Below, piece after piece: positions 1 to 59,847 of a DNA stretch of 61,438 bases. Within the stretch, counting starts at the first letter, position 1; each line of letters starts with the position of its first letter. The position numbers and the translations under genes are program-made. Origin of the DNA: an uncultured bacterium (lineage in GTDB: Bacteria; Patescibacteriota; Andersenbacteria; UBA10190; CAIZMI01). Where the stretch lies: contig CAIZMI010000003.1 of NCBI GenBank assembly GCA_903934015.1, positions 1-61,438 of the forward strand, written 5' to 3'. The notes below the pieces were generated by a model that ran no database searches, was not told where the DNA came from, and saw only the letters and a list, made by a program, of their open reading frames with translations.

Positions 1-208
1 TTGTTATTGGGCGCGTGTTTAGCATGGTGATGTTCATAATCCCAGACTACGACACGCGCTTTGTTATCCACAGGTTTCAGACCAATTCTGTGGTGGAAAC
101 AGGTGGGACGTTCATACCAATCTTGCGTTGGATAAGACTGGAGGTTGGCGCTAACTCAAAAAAATATTATAATGAAATTATTCAATTATTAATAAATGTA
201 ACATCCTA

Positions 209-1135: not shown

Positions 1136-2389
1136 ATGTCTTCCGTTGAACAATTTGATTTGGTGGTAATTGGTGGCGGGCCTTCCGGTATGGTTTCAGC
1201 CGGTCGAGCAGGGAAGCTGGGCCATTCTGTTTTGTTGTTGGAAAAAAACTTATCGCTCGGTAGAAAATTGTTACTTACGGGGGGCGGACGGTGCAATATC
1301 ACCAACCACAAGCCAACACCACAACTAATGATTGAAAAATACAAAGGTAGTGAAAAATATTTGCATTCCGCCTTTGCGCAATTCGGCGTGAACGACACCA
1401 TGGAGTTATTTAATCGTCTTGGGGTGCAAACAAAAGAAGAGGCGGAAGGAAGAATATTTCCAATGTCTGATTCATCGCGTTCAGTTTTACAGGCGCTAAT
1501 GCGTTATATGCGAGAAGGAAACGTAAAAATCAGAACAAACGCAAACGTTGCTGATGTTATTATCAACGGCGAGACAAAACTCTTTCACATTAAATTGAAA
1601 GACGAAAGTGAGATAATCGCGAAATCATGCATTATTTCGACCGGTGGTGTTAGTCACAAGGAAACCGGTTCAACTGGGGATGGTTTTCGGTGGCTTAAAA
1701 AACTTGGCCATAACATTATTAATAACAATATGGCGTTAGTTCCTGTTGCGCTAAAGGATGATTGGGTGAAAAAATTGTCCGGAGTGAAACTGGAAAATAT
1801 TAAATTGACTACATTTCAAAACGGTAAAAAGCAGAAGTCTCAAGAAGGAAAAATTTTGTTTACGCATTTTGGTGTTACCGGTCCGACCATTTTAAATATG
1901 AGCAAGGGGATTGGCGAATTGCTACAGTATGGAGATGTTGTGGTGATGTTGGATCTCTTTCCTGGTACAGATCACTTGGAAGTAAAAAAGAGACTGCAAG
2001 AATTATTAGTTGCAGAAAGCAATAAGCAACTTAAAAATAGCTTGGCACAACTAGTTCCTCTTTCATTTGTTTCTGCTATCTTGGAAATCGGAAAAATTAG
2101 TGGTGATAAAGTTAATAATAGTGTAAGTCATGAAGAAAGAATAAAAATTGTCGCGTTAATTAAAGCGATTCCCCTTAATGTGAGTGGTTTACTTGGTGCC
2201 AGTAAGGCGATTGTTTCTTCCGGTGGTGTTGATCCCAAAGAAGTGAATTTTAGGACTATGGGATCACGCATTGTCCCGAATTTGTTTGTCACCGGTGATG
2301 TATTGAATATTGATCGACCATCCGGGGGATATAGTTTGCAACTTTGCTGGACAACCGGTTTTGTCGCGGGTAGTAACATCAATAAATAG
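1136..2389 (+). CDS. HI0933/YhiN (BaiN-like) FAD-dependent oxidoreductase
   Basis: GGGPSG dinucleotide motif, GRKLLLTGGGRCNITN, GSTGDG, LFTHFGVTGP, GGYSLQLCWTTG. Confidence 0.92.
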   Translation: MSSVEQFDLVVIGGGPSGMVSAGRAGKLGHSVLLLEKNLSLGRKLLLTGGGRCNITNHKPTPQLMIEKYKGSEKYLHSAFAQFGVNDTMELFNRLGVQTKEEAEGRIFPMSDSSRSVLQALMRYMREGNVKIRTNANVADVIINGETKLFHIKLKDESEIIAKSCIISTGGVSHKETGSTGDGFRWLKKLGHNIINNNMALVPVALKDDWVKKLSGVKLENIKLTTFQNGKKQKSQEGKILFTHFGVTGPTILNMSKGIGELLQYGDVVVMLDLFPGTDHLEVKKRLQELLVAESNKQLKNSLAQLVPLSFVSAILEIGKISGDKVNNSVSHEERIKIVALIKAIPLNVSGLLGASKAIVSSGGVDPKEVNFRTMGSRIVPNLFVTGDVLNIDRPSGGYSLQLCWTTGFVAGSNINK

Positions 2390-42084: not shown

Positions 42085-43311
42085 CTAACGCGTATTACTA
42101 ATTTCCGCCTGTAACACCGCTATCGCCTTATCTAGTTGGACGTCAATTTTGTCTGTTGAATCTTCATCGGTGATAGTTATGTCCGGGGCGATTCCTTTTT
42201 CCGCTATTTCTCCCCCTTTAGGCATAAACCACTTCGCAATTGTTACGCGCAAGCTTGATCCATCGCTTAGGTTAATCATTTCTTGCACTGAGCCCTTCCC
42301 AAAAGATTTTTCACCGATAATTTTTATTCCACGAATATCACGTAATGCGCCGGCAAGAATTTCGGAGGCTGACGCAGACCCTCCATTCAACAAAACTACG
42401 GTCGGGATATTACTTAATTCACCGGGTCCTTCTGAGTAGTGAGTGACGGTTTTGTTTGGGTCTCTTGGAATTTCGCGAACAACTATCTCTCCCTCTTTGA
42501 TAAAATGTCCGGCAATTTCAACAGCGCCGAATAAAACACCTCCGGGATCATTTCGCATGTCTAGTACAATTCCCTTAACTCGTGCCTGTGTTAGTTGTTT
42601 TACAATTTGCTTAAATTTTCCCGCCGTATCTTCATGAAAAACAGAGAGACTGATAATACCAATACCATCCTTAATGTCCAAGGTTACGCTTTTTAGTTCA
42701 ATATTGTCCCGTTTTATCGTGATATCGATTGCCTTATCAAGTTTTTCGCGAATAATTTTTAATTTTACTTCCGTATTGATCGGTCCGCGAATCTTATTGG
42801 CAATTTCCGTGATTGATTCATCTTGTTTTATTGCCTTATCGTCAATACTGATAATAAAATCACCTGCTTTAATTCCTGCCTTTTCTGCCGGTGAATCTTT
42901 AAGTGGAGCGACTATTGTTACTAAATCATTTTTTATCGCTATTTCTACTCCAATACCGGAAAATTTACCACTAATTTCCTCCGCAAACTGTTTTGTTTCT
43001 TGCTTGTTGGCATACGCGGAGAAAGGGTCCCCCAATCCGGCTACTAATCCACCAATAATCCCTTCGGATATTTTTTCCTCATTTATCGTGCTGACGTATT
43101 TTTTTTGCACTATATCCCATACCTCATTAATTAATCCGCTATCGATCGATTTCGGTAAGGTTTTTGCGGATCCGTTTAATTGCTGAAACGCAGAACCGTT
43201 AATAATGTTATTCGATATTTTGTTATTATTGACTGTCGCGCCAATAAAATATGCGGCGATTACCAATAAAACATAACCAACTCGGTTGAGTTTTTGAGAA
43301 TTATTTATCAT
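42085..43311 (-). CDS. ctpA: S41 carboxy-terminal processing protease
   Basis: GDPFS, FSGIG PDZ domain, LDMRNDPGG, SASASEI, FGKGSVQ; start set at ATG 43311. Confidence 0.93.
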   Translation of the reverse strand: MINNSQKLNRVGYVLLVIAAYFIGATVNNNKISNNIINGSAFQQLNGSAKTLPKSIDSGLINEVWDIVQKKYVSTINEEKISEGIIGGLVAGLGDPFSAYANKQETKQFAEEISGKFSGIGVEIAIKNDLVTIVAPLKDSPAEKAGIKAGDFIISIDDKAIKQDESITEIANKIRGPINTEVKLKIIREKLDKAIDITIKRDNIELKSVTLDIKDGIGIISLSVFHEDTAGKFKQIVKQLTQARVKGIVLDMRNDPGGVLFGAVEIAGHFIKEGEIVVREIPRDPNKTVTHYSEGPGELSNIPTVVLLNGGSASASEILAGALRDIRGIKIIGEKSFGKGSVQEMINLSDGSSLRVTIAKWFMPKGGEIAEKGIAPDITITDEDSTDKIDVQLDKAIAVLQAEISNTR

Positions 43312-45097
43312 TAATTTTTGGCAATGTAACGGCAATGTGTAATTCCTTTAGTTGTTTTTCGGAAACTTCCGATGGTGCATTCATCATCGCGTCTTGTGCT
43401 TTGCCGTTTTTGGGAAACGCGTAAATATCGCGAATACTTATCATGTCCCAGAGGACCATCATTAGTCGATCGATACCGGGCGCGCAACCACCGTGTGGAG
43501 GGGCGCCAAATTTAAAGGCCGAAATCATTCCTCCAAAACGTTTATCTACTTCTTCATGGGAGTATCCTGCAATTTCAAAAGCTTTGTACATAATTTCTGG
43601 TTCGTGATTTCGGATGGCGCCGGAACTTATCTCAAATCCGTTTAATACAAAATCATATTGGTACGCCAAGATTTTTAGTGGATTCATTTCCACAAGAGCC
43701 TTCATGCCACCCTGTGGCATTGAGAATGGATTATGAGAAAAATCGATCTTATTTTCTTCCTTGTTAAATTCATACATTGGGAAATCGATCACCCAGCACC
43801 AGGCGGCTTTTTTAGGATCTTTAAGGCCTAGTAAATCGGCCGATGCGATTCTTACCTGCCCCAATGAACTGCATGTTTTCAACCATTCACCCGCGCCAAA
43901 GAATAATGCGTCACCATCTTTTGCGCCGACAGTTGCCACCAACTTGTTGGTAAGTTCCTCTCCCAGGTATTTATCAATTGGTGAAGCGGGTTTTCCGTCT
44001 TTTATTAAAATATATGCCAGACCGTTGGCACCGGAAGCTCTCGCTTTTTCGGTTAAGCCATCAATTTCACTGCGCGTAAACTTTGCACCGCCCGTAACAT
44101 GCAACATCTTTACGACCCCGTTATTATTTATTGCATCTGCAAACACCTTAAAACCGCATCCGGCCACCATTTCTGAAACATCTGAAATTTTCAGGTCATA
44201 TCTAAGGTCGGGCTTATCGATTCCATACGTATTCATCGCGTCATGCCAAGTAATTCGCGGAAATGGCGCTTGTAGTATGGTTTTGTCGCTAAATTCCTTA
44301 GTGAGTTCAATCATTAACGGCTCAATCATCTGGAAAACGTCTTCTTGTTCTACGAAGCTCATCTCCAAATCAAGTTGATAAAATTCGCCGGGGTGTCGGT
44401 CGGAACGCGGGTCCTCATCTCGGAAACAAGGTGCGATTTGGAAATAACGGTCAAAACCGGAGACCATTAATAATTGCTTGAATTGCTGAGGTGCCTGAGG
44501 TAAAGCATAAAATTTGCCCGGATAAAGTCGACTTGGAACCAAGAAATCACGCGCACCCTCCGGCGAGGAATTAGTCAAAATAGGTGTTTGTACCTCCGTG
44601 AAGTCGTTCTTGTGCATATATTGACGAATATATGTAATCAATTCATCACGACGCTTTAATAGATCCTGCAAACGGCGATGACGTAAATCCAAAAAACGGT
44701 ATTTGAGGCGAATTTCTTCATTCGCATTGCTCTCGCCGGCAATTTCAAATGGTAAATTTTCGCAAGTGCTTAAAATTTCCGCCGATTTTACTTCAATTTC
44801 AATTTCTCCTGTCACCAGGTTTTTATTCACCATATCAGCGGGACGCGCCGTAACTGTGCCGGAAATTTTGATTACGTATTCGTTTCTTAATTTATTGCCA
44901 AGCTCAAAAATCTCATTACCAACTTCTTGGCGAAATGTTAGTTGTGTTATACCATAGCGATCACGCAAATCAATAAAAATAACCCCGCCGTGATCACGAC
45001 GCGTATTTACCCAACCGGCTAAATTTACTGTTTCGCCGACTTGTTCTTTTCTTAACGCCCCACAATCGTGGGTTCGAATTGATGTTTTTGTGGTCAT
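43301..45097 (-). CDS. aspS: Aspartate--tRNA ligase
   Basis: RTHDCG, RRDHGGVIFIDLRD, LPQAPQQFKQLLM, GAPPHGG. Confidence 0.98.
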   Translation of the reverse strand: MTTKTSIRTHDCGALRKEQVGETVNLAGWVNTRRDHGGVIFIDLRDRYGITQLTFRQEVGNEIFELGNKLRNEYVIKISGTVTARPADMVNKNLVTGEIEIEVKSAEILSTCENLPFEIAGESNANEEIRLKYRFLDLRHRRLQDLLKRRDELITYIRQYMHKNDFTEVQTPILTNSSPEGARDFLVPSRLYPGKFYALPQAPQQFKQLLMVSGFDRYFQIAPCFRDEDPRSDRHPGEFYQLDLEMSFVEQEDVFQMIEPLMIELTKEFSDKTILQAPFPRITWHDAMNTYGIDKPDLRYDLKISDVSEMVAGCGFKVFADAINNNGVVKMLHVTGGAKFTRSEIDGLTEKARASGANGLAYILIKDGKPASPIDKYLGEELTNKLVATVGAKDGDALFFGAGEWLKTCSSLGQVRIASADLLGLKDPKKAAWCWVIDFPMYEFNKEENKIDFSHNPFSMPQGGMKALVEMNPLKILAYQYDFVLNGFEISSGAIRNHEPEIMYKAFEIAGYSHEEVDKRFGGMISAFKFGAPPHGGCAPGIDRLMMVLWDMISIRDIYAFPKNGKAQDAMMNAPSEVSEKQLKELHIAVTLPKINDK

Positions 45098-45152
45098 TGC
45101 TTCAAAGGATAGCGCAAGTTAAATGACCGCACAAGGAATATATTTATGCCTC

Positions 45153-45752
45153 AAAAAAGAAAAAACCGTACGCTGATCTCGTGAGGCTTTTTGGGATGCG
45201 GGTGTGGGTGGACACCTTTACCCTAAAGACCTCGGAGATAACGTACGGCTAGAAAAGTTCCAAAACCCATTTTAGGGAAGACGCGCCAATTTTAGGCTGA
45301 TTCCCCCTTGTTGTCTCCCGAAGGAGAACGGGGTGTTGCTTCCCTCATGATTCTGAAACTCTAATATTTAATATATCGAACAAAGTGGCACCCAGGCAAG
45401 GCACGATTCTTTCACGCGCAATCACTCGCGCGGATCCTCTAGTATTTTTAAGTGAGGCACAAGAATGGCGCAACACTTGCCTGGGTTACCACCCGCAACA
45501 GATAGACAGAAATTGTTTCTTGTCCTCTGTTGCGTCTAAAATACCATCAGATTTGATGAGGAAATCAATTTCATAAAAAGGATAATATTCCCTTTTCAAA
45601 TCCAACGGTATTTCGATATATTGTTTGAAATGAGCAATCGATATGTCCTTATTGCATCGTCAAACCCTCCTGACATGTTGGACAGTGGCGGTACTGTGGA
45701 GGGACAGCACCGCCGCCGTCAAACGCCTCTAAAAAGGCCTTTTACGAAGCAA
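45153..45752 (-). ncRNA. Candidate large structured non-coding RNA (unassigned)
   Basis: Minus-strand promoter upstream, series of long stems, C(UUCG)G tetraloop on the minus strand, final hairpin plus U-run; no credible ORF. Confidence 0.55.
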
Positions 45753-45758
45753 CATAGA

Positions 45759-45787
45759 AGCATAGTATAAGGGCCAATTATTGTCAA
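45759..45787 (-). promoter_or_regulatory. Sigma70 promoter facing the structured region
   Basis: Minus strand TTGACA, 17 nt, TATGCT. Confidence 0.6.
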
Positions 45788-45866
45788 TAGTGGTTGAATG
45801 TTGCTCATGGTTCGAGAAAATTTGTTTGTATCAGCAAAATTTTGCCGTCGTGTTGTGAACTTCGCG

Positions 45867-45902
45867 CTTTAGGTCCTACCTTTGCAAAGGTTGGACCTAA
45901 AG
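45867..45902. repeat. GGTCCGACC-family REP-like palindrome, copy 2
   Basis: CTTTAGGTCCTACCTTTGCAAAGGTTGGACCTAAAG. Confidence 0.75.
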
Positions 45903-46007
45903 ACATCACAAAAAAACGTATAACATTAAACAGTTTTGTCTGATGTTTATTAGATTCTTTTACTGTGCTTTAAACATCAATATTGATTTTAATCCTGGCA
46001 ACTTTTA

Positions 46008-47045
46008 TTAATTATGCTCTTTTCTGATTGATAGATAGATGTCTAAAAGCGCAAAAAGAAGACTAACCACTAATGGTCCAAGGACAAAGCCGAGTGGTCC
46101 AAAAAAACCAATTCCGCCCAATATGGAGAGCAAAATAATAAACGGATGAATATTGACGCCTTTTTCAATAAATTTTGGACCTAAAAAATTATCGATTAAC
46201 CCAACCGCCAATATTGCCCAAAAAAGTAACCCAACCGATGCCCATAATTGCCCCGTTAAGAAGAGAAACAATATTGCCGGCACTAAAACCATCGCGGTTC
46301 CGACTCCCGGAATGAGGGCGGATACCGCTGCTGTGCTACCCCATAGCGTTGGGTTTGGTATGCCAAAAATTGCAAAGCCAATTGAGGTTAAAATACCTTG
46401 AATCACGGCTACGACAAGTGTTCCACGCACTACCGAATTTACTGCTTGAATCAACTTTTTTGCGATTGTTTCGTCGTGTGCGTCATGAAGTGGGCTGATT
46501 GAAATTATTGCGCTCTTAAGTTTTTGTCCGTCTTTGAATGAATAATAAAGCGCTACAAGGAAAATAAATGAACTTAGAAGCAAATTTGCGATATTTGAAA
46601 ACACCGGACCCAGGTGTTGCAGTATCCAAGTTAATCCTTGTTTTAAATATTGGTTAAAATCGATATTAAGATCAATGCTAAAAGAAAAGTAATTCTTAAC
46701 AACATCAATAGTTTTCTCGGCGATAGTTGAAAGAATGGTGGTATTATTTCCTGTAACAAGGGTGGAATAAAGTCCTGATGCTTCATAGACGATATTGATT
46801 CCCACAAAAATAAGTGGTGCCACCGCTATTACCAACACGAATAAAGTTGTAATAAATGCCGCTATTCCCGCCTTATTGCGTGTGGTTCTTAGTATTGCTC
46901 GATGTACGGGAGCAAAGACAATTGCAAAAATAATCGCCAAAATTACAGCGGGGAAAAAAGGCTTAAAAATAAAGAAACTAATCGCCGTGGCAATTACAAC
47001 AAGTGCCAGTAGAAAATAGAGTTCAGATTTTTTATGCGTAGTCAT
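46008..47045 (-). CDS. AI-2E family transporter
   Basis: Multi-TM; KDG, VAVIQG, IPGVG, DNFLGP, GFVLGP. Confidence 0.92.
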   Translation of the reverse strand: MTTHKKSELYFLLALVVIATAISFFIFKPFFPAVILAIIFAIVFAPVHRAILRTTRNKAGIAAFITTLFVLVIAVAPLIFVGINIVYEASGLYSTLVTGNNTTILSTIAEKTIDVVKNYFSFSIDLNIDFNQYLKQGLTWILQHLGPVFSNIANLLLSSFIFLVALYYSFKDGQKLKSAIISISPLHDAHDETIAKKLIQAVNSVVRGTLVVAVIQGILTSIGFAIFGIPNPTLWGSTAAVSALIPGVGTAMVLVPAILFLFLTGQLWASVGLLFWAILAVGLIDNFLGPKFIEKGVNIHPFIILLSILGGIGFFGPLGFVLGPLVVSLLFALLDIYLSIRKEHN

Positions 47046-48768: not shown

Positions 48769-48841
48769 TGCGCCCACCAAGAATCGAACTTGGAACCGTT
48801 GGCTTAAAAGGCCACTGCTCTACCAATTGAGCTATAGGCGC
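48769..48841 (-). tRNA. tRNA-Lys(UUU)
   Basis: GCGCCTA-TAGCTCAATTGGTAGAGC-A-GTGGC-CTTTTAA-GCCAA-CGGTT-CCAAG-TTCGATT-CTTGG-TGGGCGC-A; 73 nt, CCA not encoded. Confidence 0.96.
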
Positions 48842-59730: not shown

Positions 59731-59847
59731 ATTTTACCACTCAATTGGTTAAATACAACTTAATTATCAAAATATATTGCTCAATTGAATCACGAATAAT
59801 AATTTGAACTATTTAACAAAGTTTAAGCATCTTGCTATACTAATGTT

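Follow-up and report, generated by a model that had tools for sequence, protein, structure and literature searches.

The thrS operator of E. coli, which is bound by ThrRS, exemplifies the protein-autoregulated leader of a synthetase gene, put and EAR are cis-acting RNAs of processive antitermination, and small RNAs (sRNAs) with C-rich apical loops include those of the RsaE/RoxS type. Here we describe an RNA gene that has features in common with each of these systems. It lies on the minus strand of contig CAIZMI010000003.1 from an uncultured member of the Andersenbacteria (Patescibacteriota; GenBank assembly GCA_903934015.1), the full 61,438 nucleotides of which form the window analysed here. 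The gap upstream of the aspartate-tRNA ligase gene aspS in this window holds a single-copy, strand-specific, structured and family-restricted RNA gene, and the folded RNA of about 600 bases that it specifies is real and previously undescribed. It represents the form, specific to its family (f1) of Saccharibacteria-like bacteria, of a large structured RNA that is located upstream of aspS throughout the order. Since other large RNAs take up this position in relatives, the RNA probably controls aspS or works with it. The comparisons involve the source genome (G000; 1.34 Mb, 98% complete), a second genome of the same genus (G001), further members of f1 and the sister family (f2); related genomes in the counts are not independent.

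The region 44700-46300 was read on the minus strand, on which all features of the window lie unless another strand is given, 45140-45800 was folded and 45150-45760 was refolded. Compared with 20 dinucleotide shuffles, the minimum free energy (MFE) of 45140-45800 on the minus strand is -258 kcal/mol versus -176.5 +/- 7.9 (z = -10.3), whereas the plus-strand fold of the same region gives z = -7.2. A promoter of the TTGACA-17-TATGCT type is present at 45759..45787, with the -35 box at 45787-45782 and the -10 box at 45764-45759 separated by a 17-nt spacer (10 of 12 matches). Promoter-like sites alone are no better than chance in the region (5 versus 3.4 +/- 1.9 expected). A promoter of the same type (TTGAC[AC]-16..18-TAnnnT) precedes the homologous hairpin in all 13 f1 loci identified, each with GTT 5-6 nt past the -10 box. 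Transcription would start near 45755-45753, just ahead of the GUU common to the relatives, and the consensus promoter together with an end resembling an intrinsic terminator predicts a transcript of about 600 nt, roughly from 45755 to 45153. The putative terminator domain (45153..45250) comprises an 87-nt hairpin (45250-45164) followed by the run U6CU6 (45165-45153), and an equivalent hairpin with U-run is present in G001 and at the f1 locus L023. A simple terminator scanner did not list this hairpin, its definition admitting loops of 3-8 nt only. The hairpin apex exposes a C-rich run, CCACCCACACCC (45201-45216); C-rich terminator apices of like kind occur in G001 and L023 and could be a second pyrimidine 'seed'. 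The terminator ends 18 nt short of the -35 box of the aspS promoter and, because aspS appears to have this promoter of its own, the RNA is an independent unit as judged by sequence signals. An earlier note on this DNA had proposed just such a minus-strand RNA, structured, missing from the annotation and equipped with a promoter and a terminator; the proposal is supported, the choice of strand agrees with the two z values and with the model scores given below, and the alternative that the stems are dispersed repeats is excluded, since the RNA region occurs once in the 1.34-Mb genome.

Homologues were found by blastn in 5/5 other f1 genomes and in 0/55 genomes outside f1, and an exact-pattern scan added seven metagenome contigs and re-found four genome records, bringing the collection to 13 distinct loci. 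Their gap-free alignment (A1, 83 columns) contains a hairpin of 24 bp (45672..45729) with a covarying outer stem, an invariant C.A mismatch (45715/45686), an invariant inner stem of 10 bp (45714-45705 / 45696-45687) and an invariant 8-nt loop, N-CCCUCC-A (45704-45697). The upper 10 bp, the mismatch and the loop stay the same across genomes of 38% to 63% GC. In A1, 91.7% of cells are paired in this hairpin as opposed to 31-55% in slid controls, and 11 of the 24 pairs have changed on both sides. The covariation score was reached by 0/500 shuffles; the covarying homologues named in the earlier note as a check were thus obtained. The hairpin's two variable inner pairs alternate between U-A, C-G, U-G, G-U and G-C, changes that fit an RNA on the minus strand only. 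A covariance model of the hairpin (R1), with G000 among the sequences it was built from, finds one copy in each of 6/6 f1 genomes and none in f2 (0/35 genomes), scoring 76-83 bits in the sense versus 26-40 bits in the antisense orientation across the six. On G000 the scores are 79.7 bits sense (E = 5e-22) and 27.8 bits antisense, where the E-values of R1, like those of the models R2 and R3 introduced below, are rough owing to a shortened calibration. Searching the hairpin against the G000 genome (blastn-short) returned only chance matches of 11-15 nt, with no further copy and no tRNA-Asp pairing, and GUC and GAC are unconserved in A1, where no tRNA-Asp mimicry was seen. The source locus itself displays the full set of family traits, namely the 24-bp hairpin, the invariant apex, the CCCUCC loop, the TTGACA promoter and a co-oriented position upstream of aspS.

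In the MFE fold, the hairpin forms part of a 5' module (45646..45758), a rod of about 110 nt from the 5' end of the transcript, and the short f1 relatives fold this module as the same rod, starting at their predicted 5' end. The AGGAGG followed by an ATG-CAA-TAA minigene (45657-45649) that the earlier note had remarked on is present, and the basal pairs UGUUGC/GCAAUA and UCGU/ACGA of the rod absorb it. The minigene is not kept as an open reading frame (ORF): G001 has a different 17-codon frame with a GTG start, and G003 has ATG-TGA. A small hairpin, GUCA-GGAGGGUU-UGAC (45659..45674), is conserved in G001, and its loop GGAGGG exactly complements the CCCUCC loop, so that the two loops could touch; in the MFE fold, by contrast, the segment is paired with the 5' leader. 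In 10 of the 13 loci a GGAGG occurs no more than 70 nt from the hairpin core, with 0.16 expected per locus, which makes a contact between the CCCUCC loop and a nearby GGAGG strand plausible. A second small CCCUCC-loop hairpin, GGCGCG-CCCUCC-CGCGUGCC, was noticed 3' of domain 2 at locus L025, at about 2305-2330 (+).

The predicted body of the RNA (45370..45622) consists of a closing stem (45622-45613 / 45379-45370) around three domains: a long stem of 17 bp (45612-45596 / 45556-45540), a hairpin (45534-45494) and a multibranch domain GGUGGUAACCCAGGCAAG...CUUGCCUGGGUGCCAC (45493-45384) closed by 45493-45476 / 45400-45384. An insert specific to G000 (45254..45362), whose fold is predicted from G000 alone, is bounded by a 14-bp stem (45362-45349 / 45267-45254) and holds an AGGGAAG/CUUCCCU junction (45345-45339 / 45280-45274) as well as the hairpin UCUCC-UUCG-GGAGA (45327-45314). 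Every stem listed in the earlier note recurs in the MFE fold within one or two bases: 45539-45613 and 45495-45533 correspond to the first two body domains, 45681-45720 returns as 45714-45704 / 45697-45687 plus 45720-45716 / 45685-45681, and the AGGGAAG...CTTCCCT domain with its C(UUCG)G loop, the terminal hairpin and U6CU6 are all there.

The body fold of the G000 type was compared between two sequences, G000 and G001, to which this body is confined. G001 matches the G000 RNA over most of its length at 69% identity (blastn) and lacks the insert 45362-45254: the blastn match skips query positions 427-543, and the pairwise alignment has a gap there. The two RNAs keep the body helices, with nine double-compensated pairs in the whole alignment, some of them in the 5' module, and the interior of the first, long stem is wholly replaced between them. 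Beyond the genus, conservation is limited to the 5' ~60-110 nt. The four other f1 genomes share only ~33-64 nt with the G000 RNA by blastn, and a soil contig matches only 45651-45788, that is, the promoter and 5' module, before it diverges. Five other loci carry a different domain of 200-270 nt, GGAGAGGAGGAC ... UAGGGGGA ... GCUCCUCUCC, with 66 predicted pairs of which 27 are compensated; in four, a short RNA is closed by a terminator and followed by an ORF; and the RNA of two loci amounts to little beyond hairpin and terminator domain. Three variant positions in a G001-like contig, and no new covariation for the body, came from the contigs of four DNA runs. On the sequences compared, the body is modular and fast-evolving, with only the 5' hairpin module kept across f1, and the likeness in size to OLE and ROOL that the earlier note had drawn does not extend to conservation: the RNA is not uniformly conserved over its 600 nt.

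The gene downstream is a bacterial-type aspS of 598 amino acids (43301..45097; NCBIfam NF001750, 820.6 bits versus a cutoff of 443). Its promoter and start (45095..45134) comprise a -35 box TTGTGC (45134-45129), a 17-nt spacer, a -10 box TATCCT (45111-45106) and, after 8 nt, the ATG (45097-45095), with no Shine-Dalgarno (SD) sequence, so that the aspS mRNA looks leaderless. The same layout (TTGnnn-17/18-TAnnnT-6..8-start, no SD) is found upstream of aspS in 11/11 f1 loci. The hairpin lies upstream of, and co-oriented with, aspS in all 11 f1 loci that have enough DNA, at a distance of 143-1425 nt between hairpin core and gene and with variable content in between, and each f1 locus has a terminator-like hairpin and U-run immediately ahead of aspS. 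The upstream neighbour varies, being an AI-2E gene, a tRNA or others. Genome-wide, a crude count gives TAnnnT 5-9 nt before the first in-frame start in 188 of 627 long ORFs and an SD-like motif in 69 of 627, and leaderless mRNAs therefore seem common in G000; TAnnnT boxes before starts can be seen elsewhere in the window, for example at 59847 (+) and 23165 (+).

In G004, L021 and L026, an ORF with its own SD stands behind the first terminator of the RNA, with no intervening promoter by eye, which suggests that the terminator is at least leaky. ORFs of 335-409 amino acids with an HHPHEKFP-like motif lie between the RNA and aspS in L019 (2195-3349, +), L021 (1185-2192, +) and, partially, L026; a search for their identity gave no Pfam match, and the protein atlas offered only weak MYG1_exonuc and ChrB_C leads. 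A different ORF of 217 amino acids occupies this position in G005, and in G003 the end of an ORF upstream of the tRNA looks similar by eye to the 335-409-amino-acid ORF.

We then consider the aspS regions taken from 41 genomes of the order. The f2 genomes have long gaps upstream of aspS with a conserved RNA of their own. Its 5' domain (26 predicted pairs, 13 compensated) has an outer stem UGUGGUGAGGAG/CUCCUCGYCACA and a hairpin with the loop CCUACUGC. The 3' core features a hairpin with the invariant loop UGAAGGAG on a stem flipping between GC and CG, and a helix UCCYRGG/CCYRGGA with three pairs that change on both sides (in 1, 5 and 9 of 20 sequences). This helix encloses a variable hairpin and an invariant unpaired segment, CAUACGAC, in which the Asp codon GAC occurs. 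In 15/15 sequences examined, the next hairpin takes the 3' strand of the helix as its own 5' strand, so the f2 core helix would be bistable, with a switch-like logic; some of the downstream hairpins carry a U-run and others precede a separate terminator. The core motif is located at most 400 nt upstream of aspS in 22 of 25 f2 loci, the three exceptions being one locus with only 199 nt, one motif at -744 and one variant motif. A model of the 3' core (R2) matches 6/6 f2 genomes and, in the phylum sample, 0/144 of the others. Loci of the f2 RNA are L042-L078, for example L042:2195-2333 (-) and L068:1052-1190 (+), and nine of them gave no Rfam family match at E <= 0.1. In four f2 genomes, an archaeal-type non-discriminating aspartyl-tRNA synthetase (AspRS; NF003483, 502.7 bits, shown for G008) replaces the bacterial AspRS, and the f2 RNA stands directly upstream of the archaeal-type gene in 4/4. 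That the RNA is kept upstream of a replaced aspS is the strongest evidence of a functional tie between these RNAs and aspS.

The f1 and f2 RNAs share the TTGACA-type promoter with GTT 5-6 bases past the -10 box, which other promoters in the same loci lack, and both end against the aspS promoter. They occupy the same locus, possibly through descent with turnover. The candidate GUGGUAA...UGCCAC (45493-45384) as an equivalent of the f2 outer stem was dropped, being unsupported by the results of R2 and of R3, the model of the f2 5' domain.

With perfect aspS linkage, the behaviour of the f2 RNA and ORFs that appear to depend on read-through, we tentatively favour the reading that the RNA is an f1-specific cis-acting leader or gatekeeper of aspS. 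Polymerase that sets out from the strong promoter upstream would normally be halted at the terminator, and the invariant 5' hairpin would be the binding site for a factor tied to aspartyl-tRNA supply, AspRS itself or tRNA-Asp being the obvious candidates. Binding would set the amount of polymerase that runs on across the aspS promoter, and such run-on could either add leadered aspS transcripts or occlude the leaderless promoter. The earlier note had suggested a very long attenuating leader for aspS. A leader role is made more likely by the invariant linkage and by the switch-like f2 RNA; attenuation by the present RNA is conjectural, and aspS has its own promoter.

Several observations weigh against the gatekeeper reading. 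Neither the G000 RNA nor its f1 relatives revealed an antiterminator pairing, and the terminator looks strong and unconditional. The aspS promoter sits at leaderless distance in all loci, so that aspS can be expressed with no read-through, and an aspS mRNA that did carry a leader would have no SD. Conservation within f1 is limited to the 5' hairpin, with a body that is swapped freely, unlike that of a ligand-binding aptamer, and the hairpin shows no conserved Asp codon or tRNA-end-binding motif in A1. At several f2 loci the switch region is itself followed by an unconditional terminator, so that attenuation would be conjectural even there. As for structural homology between the f1 and f2 RNAs, R2 has no match in G000 and R3 reaches at best E = 0.56 on the 13 f1 loci, where only the outer stem of domain 2 of L017 aligns. 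A wider hypothesis, that the order controls aspS through a fast-evolving and hitherto unknown class of 200-900-nt non-T-box leader RNAs, whose family-specific sensor cores (the CCCUCC hairpin and the bistable, GAC-containing junction of f2) read tRNA-Asp or AspRS status and act on a terminator set against a leaderless promoter, is in our estimate rather unlikely.

The alternative that survives best, and to which we give a sizeable if minority chance, is an autonomous ncRNA, trans-acting or protein-binding, whose position beside aspS is simply retained. The CCCUCC loop and the C-rich terminator loop would then be seeds for G-rich (GGAGG-like) targets, or a protein site, and the 3' body a fast-evolving scaffold. 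The consensus promoter and strong terminator of the RNA, the separate promoter of aspS and the failure to find an antiterminator are all as expected for such an RNA, as is the fact that the apex sequence, beyond its fold, is invariant over genomes of 38% to 63% GC. Furthermore, the short forms in G002 and L022 resemble classic sRNAs, with a 5' hairpin and a 3' domain that a stem and U-run close, and the best Rfam match of the RNA, although sub-threshold, is CcsR1 (RF02791; E = 0.029, 20.4 bits versus a gathering threshold of 65.3), with 21.5-22.1 bits in two relatives. An autonomous RNA, however, would hardly be expected to remain linked to aspS in 11/11 loci despite a varying upstream neighbour, or to follow aspS through gene replacement as the f2 RNA does, and with SD-like sequences apparently rare by the crude count given above (69/627), an anti-SD seed would have few targets.

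Processive antitermination, in which the 5' hairpin modifies RNA polymerase in cis to ignore downstream terminators, would explain why the hairpin can be separated from aspS by 130-1400 nt of unrelated cargo, with ORFs and two terminators among it, and strikes us as improbable. The conserved element is always promoter-proximal, with 40-45 nt between the -10 box and the core in 8 of 13 loci, its distance to aspS varies from ~143 to 1425 nt with variable content, and the ORFs of G004, L021 and L026 stand behind a terminator without a visible promoter. Yet the idea is purely architectural: Rfam shows no resemblance to established antitermination elements, the neighbourhood encodes no dedicated protein partner, and aspS is served by a separate promoter. 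We hold it very improbable that the region is a non-functional spacer or a decayed remnant with incidental stability. The body does evolve very fast and one whole domain occurs only in G000; against this stand the z of -10.3, an apex invariant over 13 loci with covariation below it, a promoter and terminator conserved in all loci, the compensated helices of G000 and G001 and the compactness of a 1.3-Mb genome. Least credible is the notion that the hairpin encodes a short leader peptide (...SGGA-x-PPQ-x-RH...) whose translation controls the downstream structure, which we rejected although one frame stays free of stops across the hairpin in 13/13 loci, five of them with a start exactly 12 nt before the core and a GGAGG/GGGGG-like motif 6-9 nt upstream and one further locus with a start at -21, because G000, G001, L022 and G005 have no in-frame start codon, the nearby in-frame ATG of L023 lies inside the -10 box and its TTG further upstream (neither a plausible start), the tails are unrelated and of varying length, the conserved part has no Asp or Asn codons, and variation is seen at second codon positions, with pair-compensating changes, but at no third position, which indicates constraint at the RNA rather than the protein level.

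In order to place the RNA among known families, the whole window was searched against Rfam at gathering thresholds, which returned a single match, a tRNA at 48769-48841. In the gap (45000-46100), a search at E <= 10 gave only sub-threshold miRNA- and sRNA-like noise, and the relatives (seven f1 loci at E <= 1, nine f2 loci at E <= 0.1) only tRNAs and noise. A check against Rfam thus produced no family match, and the view taken from the letters alone, that the RNA shows no tmRNA, RNase P, signal recognition particle (SRP) or T-box hallmarks, agrees with negative models in the gap. The T-box model (RF00230) matches neither the gap nor any of the f1 and f2 loci at these same limits. Neither G000 nor the short relatives folded with an alternative helix of the competing terminator/antiterminator kind, and the UGGN motif is unconserved in A1 and absent from the invariant segments of the f2 RNA, which does have competing helices. 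Transfer-messenger RNA and RNase P RNA are located elsewhere in G000, at C18:1951-2350 (130.5 bits) and C55:22954-23399 (143.6 bits), both above cut-off. ARAGORN reports no tmRNA in G000, and the Rfam hit at C18:1951-2350 (-) may be an atypical one; the same program lists a tRNA-Asn with the anticodon ATT, unusual for Asn, at C22:41202-41275 (-) of G000.

SRP RNA (RF00169, RF01854) has no match in G000, nor in the gap at E <= 10. The small SRP RNA model RF00169, which detects 12 of 14 control genomes, found nothing in 61/61 genomes of the phylum, and a crude motif search yielded no candidate, so that the SRP RNA of the phylum is either too divergent for the model or missing. As the hairpin is confined to f1, the RNA upstream of aspS does not explain this gap, and its apex, compared with that of SRP helix 8, consists of ten uninterrupted base pairs below a pyrimidine loop of 8 nt. 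The 6S RNA model (RF00013) has no match in G000 or the gap, the fold being multi-domain rather than a single rod, and OLE, ROOL, GOLLD, raiA and HEARO have none at the gathering threshold in the window or at E <= 10 in the gap.

Nor does the literature searched on Saccharibacteria/TM7 (structured, noncoding and small RNAs, aspS, T-box and leaderless genes) describe such an RNA. The main text of Weinberg et al. 2017 (PMC5737381) lists a lysM-TM7 motif and nowhere aspS. Almost no regulatory RNAs have been described for the Patescibacteria (candidate phyla radiation) in the literature searched, and a TM7x transcriptome preprint states that small RNAs have yet to be validated there. The present analysis adds two unrelated-looking, covariation-supported RNA families at one conserved position before aspS, one of which persists through non-orthologous gene replacement. 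If these RNAs regulate aspS, they would represent T-box-independent synthetase control in amino-acid-importing organisms and would show how an upstream RNA can still govern a gene whose mRNA is leaderless; an order-wide leader class, if true, would constitute a new coupling of an upstream RNA to a gene without any 5' untranslated region. If they act autonomously, they would count as new large ncRNAs whose architecture is unusually modular. Some Saccharibacteria of the order may be cultivable and transformable (PMC10633639), which would make the result directly testable under either reading.

Set beside known systems, the RNA resembles OLE, ROOL, GOLLD and raiA in its size of ~600 nt and its many helices. 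Those RNAs, however, are conserved at full length across many genera, whereas here only the 5' 60-110 nt are conserved beyond the genus. With the C-rich-loop sRNAs such as CcsR1, it shares a stable hairpin with a CCCUCC-type loop, followed by hairpins and a terminator; in contrast to them, it measures 600 nt instead of ~80-100 nt, its stem sequence is invariant as well, and it is strictly syntenic with aspS. As in put and EAR, a conserved hairpin module stands close to the promoter, with cargo of variable content and terminators behind it, although the Rfam search of the gap gave no sequence or model match to them. A private, sequence-conserved hairpin upstream of one aminoacyl-tRNA synthetase gene is the pattern expected if the enzyme recognises its leader, as in thrS-type leaders; unlike these, the hairpin shows no mimicry of the tRNA-Asp anticodon arm, GUC being unconserved in or beside the loop, and it does not overlie the ribosome-binding site but sits 143-1425 nt away from the start codon. 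T-box leaders differ in that no conserved UGGN bulge or specifier loop was seen here and no alternative pairing was found in f1, in that aspS alone is preceded by the RNA, with one match per genome, and in that the downstream aspS has its own leaderless-type promoter. In common with T-box leaders, it is a long structured RNA with its own promoter, directly upstream of a synthetase gene and with a terminator at its end, and the f2 RNA extends the likeness to mutually exclusive helices near the terminator-side hairpin and to a GAC in the invariant CAUACGAC.

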